DNA of 29,399 nt from a virus (Duplodnaviria; Caudoviricetes). The notes beneath the pieces are model-generated. The model was not told the DNA's origin and ran no database searches. It was given only the letters and a program-made list of their open reading frames with translations. Position 1 is the first letter of the stretch; each line of letters begins with the position of its first letter. The position numbers were made by a program, and so were the translations under genes. Shown in pieces: positions 964 to 27,559 of the stretch. The stretch lies in IMG/VR virus record IMGVR_UViG_3300020043_002440, positions 1 through 29,399 of that record; one strand, written 5' to 3'.

Positions 964-994
964 CAAATGTACACAGCTTTTTTGATTCTGCAAA
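964..994 (-). promoter_or_regulatory. Bacteroidota housekeeping-sigma promoter (-33/-7)
   Basis: TTTG (994-991) - 19 nt - TACATTTG (971-964), full consensus TTTG-N19-21-TAnnTTTG, intergenic. Confidence 0.8.
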
Positions 995-1059: not shown

Positions 1060-1704
1060 TTATTTTGCGCGACCAATTGCGAATCCTGTAATGCCACCGA
1101 GCGCAAAAGCGAATGCCTTTGTCTCATACCACTTTTTGGGAGGCTGGGCCACGATCACGTTGTGCATTCCTGTGACGCTTACATATGGATTATCTATCCC
1201 AAGGCGAACCACCTTGTCTCTTTTACGCGAAAAGAGACCGCCTCGCAGCGTATCTCCAATTGCAACGGTATAACTTACCGGAATGATAATCGAATCGATT
1301 TGAAGCCTTCCTAAGCGGTTTATTGAGCCACCTATCTGAAGGAACTTCCCCTCTCGGCTGAATGACCTTGGCAGGCGTAGGTGCGGAAAGCTGTCGATGT
1401 AGACTGTTTCGCCAAGCTCGACTTGCGTCACCACCTTGGTCCGCGTTTGATACCTTACCACCACTTCAGGCTCTCGCAGCTCCAACGCTCGCAGCTTTGT
1501 GCCTGCCTCCGCGAGCTGGACTGCTTGGCTGTGGATTCTGGAACTGTCCTTCGAAATGCGCACAGTATACTCCGAATTCAGCGAGTCAAGATACATGGCA
1601 TTACTTTCGGCCTCGCCTAACGCACCGCATGTGCGGATCAGTAGCAGCAAAATAAATAAGCAGATTGCCAATAGGCTTAGTGTACTGATATTGCTCTGGT
1701 GCAT
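1060..1704 (-). CDS. Putative spanin-like lysis protein
   Basis: N-terminal hydrophobic helix ending IRTC, a coiled-coil stretch, C-terminal KKWYE plus a Gly-rich hydrophobic segment; last gene of the lysis cassette. Confidence 0.5.
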   Translation of the reverse strand: MHQSNISTLSLLAICLFILLLLIRTCGALGEAESNAMYLDSLNSEYTVRISKDSSRIHSQAVQLAEAGTKLRALELREPEVVVRYQTRTKVVTQVELGETVYIDSFPHLRLPRSFSREGKFLQIGGSINRLGRLQIDSIIIPVSYTVAIGDTLRGGLFSRKRDKVVRLGIDNPYVSVTGMHNVIVAQPPKKWYETKAFAFALGGITGFAIGRAK

Positions 1705-1868
1705 TGTATTAGTTCGTTAAGTCGTTTTATATACTCATCCTTGTTGCGCAATTCATTGAGCAATATATCCGCTGCCACCTTCAGCGGCATGGCTTTCTCG
1801 GCTATGTAAACTGCCAGCACCTTCACAAGTCTCTCATCGCATTCGCAGTCGGTGGCCGGTAGGTTCAT
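1677..1868 (-). CDS. Hypothetical helical protein (63 aa)
   Basis: ATGA overlap with the stop of the HisKA gene; overlaps the start of the next gene. Confidence 0.6.
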   Translation of the reverse strand: MNLPATDCECDERLVKVLAVYIAEKAMPLKVAADILLNELRNKDEYIKRLNELIQCTRAISVH

Positions 1869-2431
1869 ATTTGCCTGGTTGCTTTCTTAACTAATAGCCG
1901 AATCACATCATCAAGCTTGTCAACGCTACTGGCAAGCATCTTCATCACATCATCACGCTCCTGATCCGTTGCATTATTGTGCTCAATCATCATCTTCACC
2001 AAGCCCCCGATTGAAGTCAATGGCTGTCGCAGTTCGTGCGATAGCATGAAGCGGAACTCTTCCAGGAGAATCTTCTGGCGTTCATGTTCATGGTTGCTGA
2101 TGGAAGTCACATCGACAAGCTGAATGCCGATGAAGTGCAGCATGTCAACAATGGAATAAACATTCCACATATTGTACCTCTCAGAGGCCATCTTCTGCTT
2201 TGTCTTGGCATAGGTCCGAATCGGATCGGGCGTTTTCTTCTGCGACTTCCTGATTGCCTGAAGCAGCTCATCGCGGTCGGAATCATTGGCCGCAATGTCG
2301 AGAATGTTGGTAGGCTTTATGTGGCTGCTGTACTCCTTGAATAAATCATTGGAGGTGACGATATTGCCATCCTTATCGGTGATCACATAGAAGAGGTCAA
2401 TTGATGACTCAAGGATGTGCAGGCTTGCCAT
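1865..2431 (-). CDS. PAS-like + HisKA (DHp) protein lacking the HATPase domain (188 aa)
   Basis: H-box FMLSHELRQPLTSIGG followed by a second helix (..SVDKLDDVIRLLV); N-terminal PAS-like ILESSIDLFYVITDKDGNIVTSNDLF; no N/G1/F/G2 boxes. Start reassigned to ATG 2431. Confidence 0.85.
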   Translation of the reverse strand: MASLHILESSIDLFYVITDKDGNIVTSNDLFKEYSSHIKPTNILDIAANDSDRDELLQAIRKSQKKTPDPIRTYAKTKQKMASERYNMWNVYSIVDMLHFIGIQLVDVTSISNHEHERQKILLEEFRFMLSHELRQPLTSIGGLVKMMIEHNNATDQERDDVMKMLASSVDKLDDVIRLLVKKATRQI

Positions 2432-2435
2432 ATCG

Positions 2436-2443
2436 CAAAGATA
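2436..2443 (-). promoter_or_regulatory. -7 promoter box, probably giving a leaderless transcript of the HisKA gene
   Basis: TATCTTTG-CGAT-ATG. Confidence 0.65.
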
Positions 2444-2460: not shown

Positions 2461-2859
2461 TTAGGCTAATTCTTTACGTAAGTCCTGCAAAAGATTTGAC
2501 CAGGCAGCACCGCATCCCATAAGATACTTTGCAGACATCCACAGAGTGAAGCTGAACACAATGCCGTTTAAAAGTATATCGTAATTCATAGGCGTTTCCA
2601 ATTCTTGCGTATTCCTTACAGGCTGAGATTTGACCGTGTAGTACGTGGGAGCAGCTAACAAAGATACATCACAGGGCTGAATTGTATCAAATGCGGTGAG
2701 AACTTTCTCCTTGCGAGGCTGTGCCATAACGGCTTCGAAGCTTTCGCGGTTAGCCTGGGCGAAGCTTGTATCTGCATTAGCGGCCTCCCAGCTCATGGTG
2801 TCGATGTTGAGCTTGTTGTGCCTTGCAATCTTTATGGTATCTCTACGAATCTGCTGCAT
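2461..2859 (-). CDS. Hypothetical protein with C-terminal transmembrane helix
   Basis: YDILLNGIVFSFTLWMSAKYLMG hydrophobic segment; start overlaps the holin end. Confidence 0.6.
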   Translation of the reverse strand: MQQIRRDTIKIARHNKLNIDTMSWEAANADTSFAQANRESFEAVMAQPRKEKVLTAFDTIQPCDVSLLAAPTYYTVKSQPVRNTQELETPMNYDILLNGIVFSFTLWMSAKYLMGCGAAWSNLLQDLRKELA

Positions 2860-3049
2860 CGCTTTTAGCTTTTGGAATATACCCGGCAGCGATTAATGCT
2901 GCAATGATGGCGGTTAATGTCTCGGCTGTTATCACTTTGAAGATTAGTAAAAATATGGATACCAGAATCATCAGCGAGCCGATGGTGCCACGCCAGTGCT
3001 TGACAACGACATCCACAACTCGCCTTGGTTTGGTAGCCCTTTTCCTCAT
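2843..3049 (-). CDS. Putative holin (68 aa, 2 TM)
   Basis: Basic N-terminus MRKRATKPRR, two hydrophobic helices, adjacent to the endolysin; ATG at 3049. Confidence 0.65.
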   Translation of the reverse strand: MRKRATKPRRVVDVVVKHWRGTIGSLMILVSIFLLIFKVITAETLTAIIAALIAAGYIPKAKSDAADS

Positions 3050-3095: not shown

Positions 3096-3554
3096 TCAGA
3101 AGTTACAAAGTGAGAAGTACAGATTAGCCTCTTCGCGGCGGCGGTTTGTTAAGCCGTTAAGGATTTTTCCGCCTGCCTTGTTCCACTTCAGGAACTCATC
3201 CAAGATGCTTGGGTCTGCGGCGTTTGCTTTGGCCTTCTTGAGCAGCGTGGATTTCACCAACGCACCAGTCCCCACGTTGTAGCTAAAGGCCACAAGCGCA
3301 TCGAACTGGCATTGGTTAAGGTTAGGTAAATGCTTATTTACAGCGTCCTCATAGGGCGAAAGCGTAGCGAGCAGCAATTGTGTTGCTTCCTTTTCGTTAT
3401 TGAGTTTCTCACCCAGTAGCACCTTCTTGCCGTTTGGATGGCGAGAACTGCCGTAGCCAATTGTCGGAACGCCAGCAGGGCAAAGGTAGGAACTAAGCCG
3501 CAAGCCCTCGTACTTCTTAATCAGATTTAGACCTAGAAGCGAGGTGGAGCGCAT
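3096..3554 (-). CDS. Endolysin, GH24 phage lysozyme
   Basis: EGLRLSSYLCPAGVPTIGYG catalytic motif, QFDALVAFSYNVG, STLLKK, GLTNRRREEA. Confidence 0.95.
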   Translation of the reverse strand: MRSTSLLGLNLIKKYEGLRLSSYLCPAGVPTIGYGSSRHPNGKKVLLGEKLNNEKEATQLLLATLSPYEDAVNKHLPNLNQCQFDALVAFSYNVGTGALVKSTLLKKAKANAADPSILDEFLKWNKAGGKILNGLTNRRREEANLYFSLCNF

Positions 3555-11260: not shown

Positions 11261-11268
11261 CAAAGGTA
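11261..11268 (-). promoter_or_regulatory. -7 promoter box (leaderless geometry)
   Basis: TACCTTTG-TTAC-ATG. Confidence 0.65.
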
Positions 11269-14083: not shown

Positions 14084-14163
14084 TATGCAACTGCTTTAGT
14101 TGTTGATTGTACAATTACGTGCGAGCCGCATGACTTGCTGCGGCAGAAGTTGATTGGTTTCAT
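14083..14163 (-). CDS. 26-aa microprotein MKPINFCRSKSCGSHVIVQSTTKAVA
   Basis: Exactly fills the gap: ATGA overlap upstream, TAATG overlap with the portal start. Confidence 0.6.
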   Translation of the reverse strand: MKPINFCRSKSCGSHVIVQSTTKAVA

Positions 14164-14729
14164 GGTTTCTGAATTAGCGAAAGGCCACGCCCCTCGGATG
14201 TGTTTAATGTGATGACGTTGTACTTGTAATACTTTGCATACTCCATCAGCTTCTTAACATCAGGAATATGAATTGTGTCATGATAGGCAATGGTTCCGCC
14301 CGGCTTGATCATGCGCTCAACTTCTTTGAACTCCGGCAAGATATTCGCCCAGCTATGGTCTCCATCGACAAAGATGAAATCAAACTGTCTCGGCTTCATA
14401 CCTTGCATCACCTTGATTGATTCGCCAAGGATGAAATCAACCTCAGCCCCGAATGTAGTCAGGTCATGCTTCAAGTAGTTGTTTATATCGATGCCGGTAT
14501 ACTTGCCGCCATATGGCAAGGCTGCAATCATCTTGACTGAAGTCTCGCCTTCGAATACTCCAATTTCAAGCACATTTGCTGCGCCTGTCATCTTGATTAG
14601 TGATCCGATGAATTCGCACACATCAACTTCACTGTTCCACTCATTGCGAGCAACCTCGGTGAATGTCTCGGTTATTACAATCTTCTTAGGCCGTCCGGCT
14701 TTCTTTGGCTTATCTTCTTGGGTCTGCAT
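14160..14729 (-). CDS. Class I SAM-dependent methyltransferase (Methyltransf_24-like, probable O-methyltransferase)
   Basis: VLEIGVFEG, GIDI, FDFIFVDGDH, IKPGGTIAYHD motifs; start reassigned to MQTQED (14729). Confidence 0.85.
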   Translation of the reverse strand: MQTQEDKPKKAGRPKKIVITETFTEVARNEWNSEVDVCEFIGSLIKMTGAANVLEIGVFEGETSVKMIAALPYGGKYTGIDINNYLKHDLTTFGAEVDFILGESIKVMQGMKPRQFDFIFVDGDHSWANILPEFKEVERMIKPGGTIAYHDTIHIPDVKKLMEYAKYYKYNVITLNTSEGRGLSLIQKP

Positions 14730-15630
14730 GTTTGTGGTCTGTAATTCTGTGAATAAAGTATTTATGCTGGAGGCCATCTTCTTGCATCCATGCTTTAAGT
14801 TTTCGATCAAGCCAGTCAATGTAAAAGCTTGGCGTGAATCCTTTGCCGCCATAGTAACTCATCAAGTAGAACCGTTCTTCAATCTGGTTGAATGTAAACT
14901 CTCTGTTCATCTGGAAGCATACCACATCAATCTCATACGGCTTGAATTTATTCTTGCCGAATGAAACATTGAAGTACAATTCATCAGGCTGACCACCGCC
15001 CCACTTCATTCGAAGCTTGGCAAGCGGAAGCGGATTGTTGAGGTACAAATCGGCAGCCGTTCTGAATATCGCCTCTGCCTCATCGCACTTCTCAATGAAC
15101 TGGATGCTGCTATTGATAGCGTATATCTTGTCTTCCTTAGACAGCCCGAAATGCTGCCACAGAGAATCGGCCCACGCCCATTGCATCTCTTTGAAGTCTC
15201 GGCCCTTGTCGATGGTGTGCTCGCCAACAACTCGCGTGGCATACTTCGCATCGTTAGCAATTAGCTGCTCGATGAGAGGCTGCAAGTCCTTCAAGCAGAC
15301 TGCATCAACATCGAGGTAAAGATTGTAGTGATACGGCAAGTAATCGTACAGAAGCACCTTGGCCTTGCCCGGATCTAATTTCTTGTTCGTGTATATGTGC
15401 TGCTCAGGCAGTTCAACAAAGGTGTCGATGCATTGGCCCAGCTCGTGGCAATGATACACAGCACGCTCGCTACTATCGCAAATTAAAGCGATAGGCAGTG
15501 CGGCATTAAATCGCTTAATCGAATAAGCGAGGTTATAAGCAGCCCAGTAATACTGAGGCTTGCCAAATGCCACAAGCACCACCCCTTGCGAGGTAGTGCC
15601 TTGGCCTTGAATGTTTGAAGAACTATCCAT
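14710..15630 (-). CDS. GT-A fold glycosyltransferase (GT8-like)
   Basis: KAKV..YDYLPY..NLYLDVD (DxD), INSS, PDELYFN motifs. Confidence 0.75.
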   Translation of the reverse strand: MDSSSNIQGQGTTSQGVVLVAFGKPQYYWAAYNLAYSIKRFNAALPIALICDSSERAVYHCHELGQCIDTFVELPEQHIYTNKKLDPGKAKVLLYDYLPYHYNLYLDVDAVCLKDLQPLIEQLIANDAKYATRVVGEHTIDKGRDFKEMQWAWADSLWQHFGLSKEDKIYAINSSIQFIEKCDEAEAIFRTAADLYLNNPLPLAKLRMKWGGGQPDELYFNVSFGKNKFKPYEIDVVCFQMNREFTFNQIEERFYLMSYYGGKGFTPSFYIDWLDRKLKAWMQEDGLQHKYFIHRITDHKHADPRR

Positions 15631-25257: not shown

Positions 25258-25379
25258 AAGTGATCATCGTCATCCTCTGGATGCTCTTTCATGAAGGACT
25301 GCACCGCAAGGATGATGAACCAGCCGAACGCTGCACATAGCAGCAAGGTGGCAATCGTTATCACTGCGCCCTTAATCAT
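25242..25379 (-). CDS. Small single-pass membrane protein (45 aa)
   Basis: Not in the track; MIKGAVITIATLLLCAAFGWFIILAVQSFMKEHPEDDDDHLWPSV overlaps both neighbours. Confidence 0.6.
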   Translation of the reverse strand: MIKGAVITIATLLLCAAFGWFIILAVQSFMKEHPEDDDDHLWPSV

Positions 25380-25683
25380 CGGAGTCTTTTGTCTTGATTA
25401 TCACAAGCGGCTCGGTGGTCTTCAGCGTGGTCTCGCTTGTCTGCTTCGGCTTGCCATAGCCTCGGTCAAGCAGCAACTCCGCTGCTCTGGTGTCACCCTT
25501 CTTGGCCTTCGCATGAAGTGCAAGCAATATTTCCTCCGCTGCCGTCAAGCCATCCTTGTTCTCCTTGCCAAGCACGTTGGCCAGCAATACGTGCAAGTCT
25601 GGAAGCTTAGGCGGACGGCCGTTTGGGTTGCCGCTTTGCCCCTTCTTGAACTTGCTGTGCTCTGGTGGAATTCCTCTTGGCAT
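25372..25683 (-). CDS. terS: Terminase small subunit-like protein (DUF5681 N-terminus)
   Basis: KFKKGQSGNPNGRP and AKKGD.RAAELLLDRGYGKP motifs, upstream of terL. Confidence 0.75.
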   Translation of the reverse strand: MPRGIPPEHSKFKKGQSGNPNGRPPKLPDLHVLLANVLGKENKDGLTAAEEILLALHAKAKKGDTRAAELLLDRGYGKPKQTSETTLKTTEPLVIIKTKDSDD

Positions 25684-25701
25684 ACACTGTTTTTTCCCTG
25701 T

Positions 25702-26013
25702 TTAACTTCTGAACAGCACAGCCTGTGCATCAGTGTTTTGCTCAATTTTATCGACTTGCTCTCGGCTGTTGTCGTAGTGCAAATCGATATCCAATCGCTC
25801 AACTGTTCTCCACTTGTCTGCTCCGTTGGTGAAGTAAATACGCAAGCGAGGGATTCCAAGTTTCGTGGCTATTGCATACACCTCAGCAGATGCACGGCCT
25901 TCATTTCGGGCTGTGATGATAAACACATCATCGTCCTTCTCGATGGCACGAATCGCAATATCTTGCCCTGCTAAGGTGTCAAGCACTCCATCGATGTCGA
26001 ATGATACTCTCAT
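25702..26013 (-). CDS. Minimal capless HAD-superfamily phosphatase (103 aa)
   Basis: Motif I FDIDGVL, motif II ITAR, motif III K, motif IV HYDN. Confidence 0.8.
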   Translation of the reverse strand: MRVSFDIDGVLDTLAGQDIAIRAIEKDDDVFIITARNEGRASAEVYAIATKLGIPRLRIYFTNGADKWRTVERLDIDLHYDNSREQVDKIEQNTDAQAVLFRS

Positions 26014-26154: not shown

Positions 26155-26553
26155 CTACAAATTTACTAAATTTTCGAAAAACAAGCTTTCTTGTGTGACA
26201 TTAATCGCGTGGCCCTTGTATATCATCTCATCGAGTTGCGATTGATAGATGAACAAATCGTGTATTTTGCCTTCAATAAAAGCTTTGACAGTGTGACCAA
26301 TTACTCCGCTTTTGTCTGCTGTTGGAGTAAGTATTCCAAAGTGATACTGCACATCCTTCTCTTTGCTCAAGACAAGCTTATTGATCTTGCCAAGCTTTCG
26401 AATGTCATCAACATCAAAGGCCACTGCAACATCGTAGTCAATTGCCGGATGTGTTAAATATCCAAAGTAGCAATGGTCCTTCATGTATGCCGAATCGACA
26501 AACACGCCAGCTCTAAGCCGGCGTGTGCATTGTTTGTGGTTATAACTGGTCAT
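26155..26553 (-). CDS. Hypothetical protein (132 aa, MTSYNHKQ...)
   Basis: Co-oriented ORF; start chosen to minimise overlap. Confidence 0.65.
   Translation of the reverse strand: MTSYNHKQCTRRLRAGVFVDSAYMKDHCYFGYLTHPAIDYDVAVAFDVDDIRKLGKINKLVLSKEKDVQYHFGILTPTADKSGVIGHTVKAFIEGKIHDLFIYQSQLDEMIYKGHAINVTQESLFFENLVNL
26158..26165 (-). promoter_or_regulatory. -7 promoter box at the start of the packaging/morphogenesis operon (leaderless geometry)
   Basis: TAAATTTG-TAGC-ATG. Confidence 0.6.
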
Positions 26554-26993: not shown

Positions 26994-27024
26994 CAAAGGT
27001 ATTTATTTGTTTGTGTTTTGCAAA
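26994..27024 (-). promoter_or_regulatory. Bacteroidota promoter (-33/-7), leaderless geometry
   Basis: TTTG (27024-27021) - 19 nt - TACCTTTG (27001-26994) - CACAC - ATG. Confidence 0.75.
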
Positions 27025-27239: not shown

Positions 27240-27559
27240 GAGTTAATGACCTTCAAGAATTCTTGTTCATTTCGCACGATGTGATACTCATGGCCCAAAG
27301 ATATGCACAGTTGCTGGAACTTAATCTGCAATGGTGATTGCTTGCCGGTGTCTGTCTTCCATTCGATCCAGCACGTTCTACCTTCAGGCTTCATGAAGCA
27401 CATGTCTGCAACACCAGGCACAACTCCCATAGCTTTATTCATTGCTCCCTTTATGCCGTTCATGCTGTTGTTGTTGATTGCGAAAACTCTTCCACGTAAA
27501 TCGGGGCGCGCATTCCAGAGGTTTGTGAATGCCTTCGCCTGTGCTTTTACTTCACTCAT
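27236..27559 (-). CDS. VRR-NUC domain nuclease (PD-(D/E)xK)
   Basis: GVVPGVADM...WIEWKT..GKQS..Q..FQ motif; ATGA overlap at 27559. Confidence 0.9.
   Translation of the reverse strand: MSEVKAQAKAFTNLWNARPDLRGRVFAINNNSMNGIKGAMNKAMGVVPGVADMCFMKPEGRTCWIEWKTDTGKQSPLQIKFQQLCISLGHEYHIVRNEQEFLKVINS

Follow-up and report, generated by a model that had tools for sequence, protein, structure and literature searches.

A kinase-less PAS-DHp protein lies at the center of a conserved three-gene insert in the lysis cassette of a tailed-phage family

Why does a tailed phage carry, among its lysis genes, a protein with the sensor and the histidine-bearing hairpin of a sensor kinase and no kinase domain? The question is raised by a 29.4-kb tailed-phage record (29,399 nucleotides, 84% complete), with matches to terminase, portal, primase-helicase and lysozyme; the whole stretch is called the window here. 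A first-pass annotation, made from the sequence alone, had singled out a 188-aa protein with a PAS-like N terminus and an intact H-box, which we refer to as PAS-DHp.

RESULTS

Domain Architecture of PAS-DHp

The PAS-DHp gene is read from the minus strand, from an ATG at 2431 to a TGA at 1865 (Table I). The first-pass annotation had let it extend from 1865 to 2443; the stop agreed, but the start is the ATG at 2431, and 2443 coincides with one edge of the promoter motif (2436–2443). The frame also permits an alternative TTG start, which would give 194 aa. A Pfam scan returned HisKA (PF00512) as the sole family, over residues 135–184 with 32.6 bits against a cut-off of 26.9, and no PAS match. In the AlphaFold model (pLDDT 75), a PAS-type sheet is followed by helices 113–150 and 156–187, with His132 in the first, long helix and the second forming the return helix. 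The top Foldseek matches of the model were LOV/PAS-kinase chimeras and PAS domains (E 3e-7), with a TM of about 0.7 normalized to HIF-2a PAS-B, so that the N-terminal domain has a PAS fold by structure although the Pfam match is absent. The profile match above the cut-off, the two-helix hairpin and the conserved His in helix 1 mark the C-terminal part as HisKA, and the H-box reads SHELRQPL. The PAS-like domain and intact H-box of the first-pass annotation were therefore borne out.

The stop falls 56 residues past His132, and the protein ends with DHp helix 2. The CA (HATPase_c) domain that follows the DHp in a class I sensor histidine kinase is absent. Position H+1 is acidic, as in that class (E133 in close copies), and H+4, which is T or N in the HisKA phosphatase motif (E/DxxT/N), is Q136 in close copies. 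The best PDB sequence match was 3A0R, a class I kinase that we take to be T. maritima ThkA, and it covers the end of the PAS domain and the DHp. Database records already name the protein “signal transduction histidine kinase.” In BFVD, PAS-like proteins of the cultured Cellulophaga phages phi18:3 and phi19:1 (S0A2B2 and R9ZZL0) gave weak model matches (E 4e-3 and 1e-2, respectively), and these phages might serve as a test system in culture.

TABLE I. Features of the PAS-DHp locus in the window
Feature	Position	Strand	Basis
Endolysin, phage lysozyme (PF00959)	3096..3554	minus	Pfam/PHROG match
Holin-like 68-aa hydrophobic protein	2843..3049	minus	Position and sequence; no family match over cut-off
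132-aa protein with one hydrophobic segment near the C terminus	2461..2859	minus	Sequence, synteny
Bacteroidota-type -7 element TATCTTTG, 4 nt before the PAS-DHp ATG; predicted leaderless mRNA	2436..2443	minus	TAnnTTTG match
PAS-DHp (HisKA) gene, 188 aa, without CA/HATPase domain	1865..2431	minus	ORF call, Pfam, alignment, model, Foldseek, selection
PAS-fold domain, residues 1–108, terminating in the DVT hinge (D107 V108 T109)	2108..2431	minus	AlphaFold model and Foldseek; no Pfam PAS match
His132 codon (CAC), predicted phospho-acceptor	2036..2038	minus	Invariant in 199/199 viral copies and 34/34 distant stand-alone relatives
Coiled linker and DHp hairpin, residues 113–188	1868..2095	minus	Pfam, PDB sequence match, AlphaFold model
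63-aa protein of three helices, coupled by ATGA; predicted to bind the PAS-DHp dimer	1677..1868	minus	Synteny, alignment, complex model
Unimolecular-spanin-like protein; hydrophobic N-terminal stretch containing an invariant Cys, second hydrophobic segment at the C terminus	1060..1704	minus	No family match
Second TAnnTTTG after the spanin-like gene, likely promoter of the subsequent replication-side genes	964..971	minus	Motif position

Conservation and Selection

The first search found 179 relatives, and in the alignment of the best 120 of them with the window, 99 of the 121 sequences are 188 aa long. Three viral scans gave 203 loci, or 204 with the window, and five that were cut by contig ends were removed. 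All 199 remaining whole copies are 188 or 189 aa long, and all end in one of three near-identical C-terminal motifs. SHE(L/I)RQPLT is found in 198 and SHELRHPLT in one, with E at H+1 in 199/199 and Q at H+4 in 198/199. The dN/dS ratio against the window had a median of 0.11 and a maximum of 0.21 (61 pairs, 0.1 < dS < 2) and was lowest, at 0.06–0.07, in the linker and DHp helix 1.

A profile search of the whole library added stand-alone relatives of 171–201 aa. When 34 stand-alone relatives (20–61% identity) were aligned, no residue other than N28 and H132 was invariant, and the H-box R and P were each retained in 26. H+1 is E or D in 18 of these proteins and non-acidic in 16, and H+4 is N in two and T in none. 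This variation indicates that the His is retained and that the usual kinase and phosphatase helper residues are not. A scan of the viral contigs with one distant member, P0131, gave no match, and no cultured relative of PAS-DHp, of a distant member or of the spanin-like protein was found among 50,697 phage records.

A decaying gene, a pseudogene or an assembly artefact was rejected on the basis of the dN/dS of ∼0.1, the fixed length and the conserved C-terminal motif. Full-length or fused homologues were likewise rejected, with none among 944 candidates of 330–2000 aa, which is weak evidence alone. The first-pass annotation had judged that the protein is not an obvious frameshift truncation, and the constant length of the whole copies agrees. 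A frameshift fusion to the 63-aa ORF was discarded, as a slippery heptamer is absent from the last 40 nt in 171/199 copies and that ORF is not a HATPase; so was read-through from the membrane-protein gene, as the intergenic gap varies and the frame changes. PAS-DHp is thus an intact, conserved phage gene without a kinase domain and not a pseudogene. A second HisKA match below threshold (E 3e-4 to 7e-4) was seen in G314, G315 and G316, in a 228-aa frame ∼2.5 kb upstream, and is probably due to chance.

Position within the Lysis Cassette

The genes are transcribed in the order lysozyme, holin-like, 132-aa membrane protein, PAS-DHp, 63-aa ORF and spanin-like. The names holin and spanin rest on position, hydrophobic segments and the invariant Cys, not on family matches, and the product of 1060–1704 resembles a unimolecular spanin. 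PAS-DHp had been placed between holin and the spanin-like gene; this is correct as an order, but the gene touches neither, having the 132-aa gene upstream and the 63-aa gene downstream. The reported end directly after the second DHp helix, with an ATGA-coupled next gene, was confirmed; among 193 loci that have an ORF downstream, the PAS-DHp stop overlaps the ATG of that ORF in 187.

Wherever the contig had room, the membrane-protein gene (200/200), holin (199/199), lysozyme (164/164), 63-aa gene (190/190) and spanin-like gene (168/168) were in place, although these counts come from related phages and are not independent events. PAS-DHp was present in 80/80 loci chosen by the 63-aa gene, many of them on the same contigs as before, and in 12/12 chosen by a distant spanin-like gene. 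PAS-DHp is the middle of a fixed three-gene insert consisting of a single-pass membrane protein, PAS-DHp and the 63-aa protein. The first-pass annotation had staked its finding on two points, that homologues should not prove to be full-length kinases with relaxed selection here and that the His and the synteny should be conserved. Neither refutes it; the homologues are not full-length kinases, selection is purifying, and the His (34 relatives) and the synteny (close-family loci) are both conserved.

Gene context is known for only some of the distant stand-alone members. The order is kept in three distant metagenome contigs, L267–L269, whose members have near 35% identity and two of which have a non-lysozyme endolysin. 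In L206 and L262–L266, the spanin-like gene lies upstream of PAS-DHp. The pair formed by PAS-DHp and the small gene heads the replication-side genes in L262–L266, and in L264 and L266 it remains paired with no endolysin or holin within 3 kb. The arrangements in L206 and L262–L266 speak against a strict lysis link.

D-S/T-hydrophobic motifs numbered 2.9 per membrane protein, compared with 0.55 in shuffles (related sequences), and 3.8 in the spanin-like protein, compared with 0.6; PAS-DHp had none above chance. This O-glycosylation motif marks non-cytoplasmic Bacteroidota proteins according to PMC12871550, and on that ground the 132-aa membrane protein is likely oriented N-out, with its mostly acidic N-terminal part in the periplasm. 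D-S/T pairs are invariant in the spanin-like alignment, and phage lysis proteins (1060–1704 and 2461–2859) may be glycosylated by the host. The overlap of the holin and membrane-protein genes was 8, 11, 14, 17 or 20 nt in the inspected loci (2843–2859 in the window), always in the same frame, which simple inheritance explains. In several distant members of the cassette, a 253–258-aa Cys-rich protein with a signal-peptide-like start is encoded just before holin, at L120:8476–9252, L262:5989–6753, L263:5230–5994 and L269:8457–9218; its gene is absent between lysozyme and holin in the window.

Promoter of the PAS-DHp Gene

The TAnnTTTG consensus has a spacing of 4–5 nt (PMC6847099), which would place +1 at or beside the A of the PAS-DHp start codon; most F. 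johnsoniae transcripts are leadered according to the same source. The motif is not enriched in the window (20 observed and 16.5 expected, 15 of the 20 on the coding strand). It stands exactly 4 nt before the ATG in 79/79 loci of the window's clade and at that position in 0/40 and 0/80 loci of two other clades, in which PAS-DHp abuts or overlaps the membrane-protein gene at the loci inspected. The leaderless-type promoter assigned by the first-pass annotation thus holds for the window's clade and fails for the other two; as predicted from the motif, it is a trait of that clade and not of the family. In 8/8 loci inspected, a TAnnTTTG motif lies 830–960 nt beyond the PAS-DHp stop. Five coding-strand ATGs in the window are preceded at 4–5 nt by TAnnTTTG; the four further motifs, all on the minus strand, are at 27296–27303, 26994–27001, 26158–26165 and 11261–11268, and leaderless transcripts may be common in this phage.

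Predicted Complex with the 63-aa Protein

We predicted the complex of two PAS-DHp copies with the 63-aa protein, which forms three helices. The complex scored 0.68, and the best of 3 controls scored 0.00. The score mark was reached by 116/157 solved and 2/215 mismatched pairs, counts that are only roughly valid here, and 7/44 blind neighbor pairs passed in the complex tool's own test. The prediction runs share at least 47% of contacts, with a partner pLDDT of at least 75. The predicted site is formed by the outer PAS sheet (R72, Y74, Y86 and M88) and the DVT hinge (104–113) of both protomers. In the model, the closest contacts, which involve both protomers, join Y74 to M27, P28 and V31, Y86 to I35 and V31, L105 to Y21, and D107 and V108 to V17, L14 and R13.

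An alignment of 41 partner sequences shows no variation at M27 or L14, and the partner interface is more conserved than the rest of the protein (0.67 versus 0.45; 2 of 10,000 random sets were as high). The PAS side of the interface is weakly more conserved in close relatives (0.81 versus 0.72; 896/10,000) and not more conserved in distant relatives (0.36 versus 0.43). The 63-aa protein had no family match and no Foldseek match at E 0.001; its best VIA Z was 7.0, to unrelated helical bundles, and Sda was not in the best 50. It seems unlikely that the complex score arose from likeness to a solved complex, since the 63-aa protein has no clear known fold. The predicted docking site of the 63-aa protein is thus the PAS sheet and hinge of the PAS-DHp dimer, and the modeling makes it the best-supported partner of PAS-DHp, through the PAS domain.

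Phage Group and Host

The phage group is uncultured and its host is likely a member of the Bacteroidota, as suggested by the TAnnTTTG motifs, the enrichment of O-glycosylation motifs and the nearest cellular relatives of PAS-DHp. The best E-value of the terminase was to Flavobacterium phage 11b, at 31% identity. The claim that the window encodes no HATPase or response regulator was upheld and extended to 39 related phage records: a profile search with positive controls found a receiver in 0/40 and HATPase_c in 0/40 of these records including the window, of which 28 are at least 90% complete, 11 have terminal repeats and all 40 have HisKA over the cut-off. A split kinase elsewhere in the phage was thereby excluded. 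A temperate switch was rejected, with no tyrosine integrase in 29 records in a search covering the tyrosine class only.

Three close matches that might have been prophage copies were short contigs in metagenome-assembled genomes of three different phyla; they do not name the host, since they are likely mis-binned phage DNA. Two RNA runs gave only short, diverged contigs, among them a 400-nt fragment that overlies the gene and differs at 29 positions, and show neither transcription nor its timing. Elsewhere in the window, a methyltransferase gene and a weakly glycosyltransferase-8-like gene are adjacent among the structural genes (14160–15630, minus strand), and a 227-aa ATG ORF with no Pfam or PHROG match lies on the plus strand (25291–25974) between larger minus-strand genes.

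Kinase-less HisKA Proteins of the Host Phylum

The nearest cellular relatives of PAS-DHp are PAS/GAF-DHp proteins of Bacteroidota, and they too terminate after the DHp. The match list contains 92 proteins of more than 235 aa: 61 have no more than 40 residues beyond the DHp, in 28 the DHp leads into a CA domain, and the remaining 3 carry a different tail; the CA domain was judged here by motif pattern, and because metagenomic proteins may be cut short, genomes were checked. In five Bacteroidota genomes, 13/20 returned loci encode sensor-DHp proteins ending at a true stop, and the other seven comprise five full kinases, one DHp followed by PAS and one phage-type copy. In a sample of the phylum, 15 of 301 genomes gave a match (E 1e-8), with 12/18 loci kinase-less and one locus common to the two sets. 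Pfam assigned PAS, GAF or REC plus HisKA without HATPase to 9 of 10 host proteins and PAS only to the tenth. A receiver gene lies within 1.5 kb in 5/23 kinase-less host loci, with none in 18/23.

PAS-DHp, with its sensor, terminal DHp and no CA, fits this stand-alone HisKA class in architecture. The class is catalogued by software: Table 2 of PMC5395568 lists the P2CS class “HisKA phosphotransfer proteins,” which are stand-alone HisKA proteins, at 2–14 per Flavobacterium genome. In the open-licence literature, we found no description of the phage family and no experiments on the host class. The first-pass annotation was right to call PAS-DHp an orphan without a kinase domain, but this is common to the host class and not a phage oddity. 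It had also noted Q at the phosphatase position, which is correct and less telling than it appeared, as CA-bearing relatives mostly lack T or N there too. The CA-bearing kinases in the match list have D (13), N (9) or E (3) at H+1 and A (11), S (11) or T (3) at H+4; since they vary at both positions, the H-box motif does not separate a transferase from other roles.

A quick tree of 132 rows, selected with profiles built from the 34 stand-alone relatives and their kin, placed all 34 on one branch (support 100). The neighbors of this branch are mostly kinase-less single-PAS host proteins, with weak support (83–84) and one full kinase among them, and the kinase-less host proteins do not form one clade. 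The short form was likely inherited from the host class, judging from these sequence comparisons. Two REC-PAS-HisKA proteins without CA (L247:913–1935 and L249:757–1785) each have a full kinase and single receiver genes as neighbors; this layout resembles a relay and is possibly an undescribed Bacteroidota phosphorelay.

DISCUSSION

The architecture, selection and synteny findings are far more secure than the mechanistic chain built on them. Autophosphorylation requires the CA domain according to PMC3510030, and PAS-DHp has none, so the host would have to supply any phosphate on His132. Dependence on host partners is likewise implied, as neither a receiver nor a HATPase gene was found in the phage. 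The first-pass reading of PAS-DHp as a decoy, sink or phosphotransferase that rewires host two-component signaling was thus borne out in part. Our leading explanation, held tentatively, is that PAS-DHp binds the 63-aa product and acts as a His phosphotransfer protein or phosphate sink from host receivers, linking host signaling to lysis timing. The joint between the two domains, here the DVT hinge, is generally regarded as the route by which PAS domains set the conformation of a DHp. A host receiver would phosphorylate His132; the phospho-state or a PAS ligand would shift the hinge, such that the 63-aa protein is held or released; and this hinge/63-aa switch, with the upstream membrane protein, would act on holin triggering. 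It is possible, if rather doubtful, that the three proteins form a lysis timer controlled by phospho-His, with a periplasm-facing membrane protein, a host-charged PAS-DHp and a 63-aa switch held or released by the PAS hinge, which would be the smallest working example of the kinase-less HisKA class that is common in Bacteroidota.

PAS-DHp could instead be a decoy subunit that pairs through its DHp with a host kinase in mixed dimers and either blocks the kinase or drains its phosphate in trans, as RetS does to GacS. We consider this unlikely. The RetS-GacS precedent (PMC12189002) and the class I kinase 3A0R as best PDB match agree with it, as does the Glu at H+1 in all close copies, since an acidic residue was needed for kinase-type phosphorylation in CrdS (PMC3510030). 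An invariant His, however, is more than a pure blocker would require, nearly half of the distant members (16/34) lack an acidic residue at H+1, and the 301 sampled genomes of the phylum contain no kinase similar enough to point to a particular mate (best E 3.9e-14). The H+1 Glu of the close copies fits phosphorylation by a host kinase CA domain as well as it fits the preferred phosphotransfer reading.

The same biochemistry might serve an end other than lysis, with PAS-DHp and the 63-aa protein acting as an early host-takeover unit at the border of late and early genes; we rank this after the decoy and also regard it as unlikely. The host-type promoter directly before the gene in the window's clade would suit such a unit, and so would L262–L266, where the pair heads the replication-side genes, two of them (L264 and L266) with no endolysin or holin nearby. 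Against this, the motif is missing there in the 120 loci of two clades, with the gene abutting or overlapping the membrane-protein gene where inspected, and all close-family loci with room have holin and lysozyme upstream, an order that holds in L267–L269.

It is improbable that PAS-DHp is a phosphatase under PAS control, removing phosphate from a response regulator of the host. The isolated DHp of EnvZ and of NtrB suffices for phosphatase activity (PMC3510030), but H+4 is Q in 198/199 close copies of PAS-DHp and never T in the 34 distant relatives, and an N-to-Q change at H+4 abolished the phosphatase activity of CrdS (PMC3510030), a result from one kinase that may not transfer to this subfamily. 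The retained His, the H+1/H+4 pattern, the CrdS change and the host relay layout favor phosphotransfer or a sink over a phosphatase; the motif argument is weakened by full kinases of the same subfamily, which vary at both positions.

Equally a matter of low probability, and placed after the phosphatase, is a phosphate-free scaffold, in which the PAS-DHp dimer would hold or release the 63-aa protein by ligand and the His would be used otherwise, for example in metal binding. It would account for a predicted interface that involves the PAS sheet and hinge and lies apart from His132, and for phages that encode no phosphorelay partner, but the sole invariant DHp residue is the canonical phospho-acceptor, and the H-box R and P are each kept in 26/34 distant relatives. 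That PAS-DHp is a decaying fragment of a captured kinase gene, as the absent catalytic domain might suggest, is almost certainly wrong, given the purifying selection, the fixed length and C-terminal motif, the host proteins with the same ending and, weak alone, the lack of a longer homologue among the 944 candidates.

Compared with known systems, PAS-DHp is closest in layout to the Bacteroidota stand-alone HisKA proteins, such as the PAS-PAS-HisKA of Filimonas zeae (L207), which likewise consist of one or more sensors and a terminal DHp without CA, end ∼50–70 residues past the His and rarely have T or N at H+4. The phage form differs in its one divergent PAS, its place in the lysis cassette and its coupled 63-aa partner. 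With class I PAS kinases (3A0R and FixL-type LOV chimeras), which are its best sequence and fold matches, it shares PAS, coiled linker and a DHp with H-box; unlike them, it has no CA and so no autophosphorylation, and there is no cognate receiver on the phage. ChpT has a kinase-dead DHp with a conserved His that needs an outside phosphodonor, and both Spo0B and ChpT lack a PAS and retain a degenerate CA-like domain. PAS-DHp, in contrast, ends with DHp helix 2, and neither protein was among its 33 PDB sequence matches. Spo0B resembles it in its kinase-dead DHp and conserved His needing an outside phosphodonor (PMC11210211). By analogy, PAS-DHp would work most like a phosphotransferase of the Spo0B/ChpT type, yet it is a member neither of that group nor of the class I kinases.

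In T4 lysis inhibition, holin T is accompanied by the periplasmic antiholin RI and the cytoplasmic RIII. The concept alone is similar, in that extra periplasm-facing and small cytoplasmic proteins make lysis time responsive to a signal; T4 uses no PAS or phospho-His, and no sequence or fold link to the phage module was found. Like the 63-aa protein, Sda and KipI are small accessory proteins; their target is a sensor kinase (PMC12189002). They act on full kinases by blocking CA-DHp contact, whereas the predicted site of the 63-aa protein is the PAS sheet and hinge, and they are, like RetS-GacS, analogues only.

If the preferred phosphotransfer reading is true, lysis timing would read the two-component state of the host through a phospho-His, which we did not find described in the open-licence literature. 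Its small size and solubility (188 and 63 aa), together with the invariant His and the predicted interface, make the module directly testable. It may also offer a handle on the many kinase-less Bacteroidota HisKA proteins, which are counted in databases and for which we found no phosphodonor or output in the open-licence literature. One such host protein, from Chitinophagaceae (L227:1483–2553, G002), joins an ethylene-receptor-like ETR1_N domain to PAS and a terminal HisKA with no catalytic domain.
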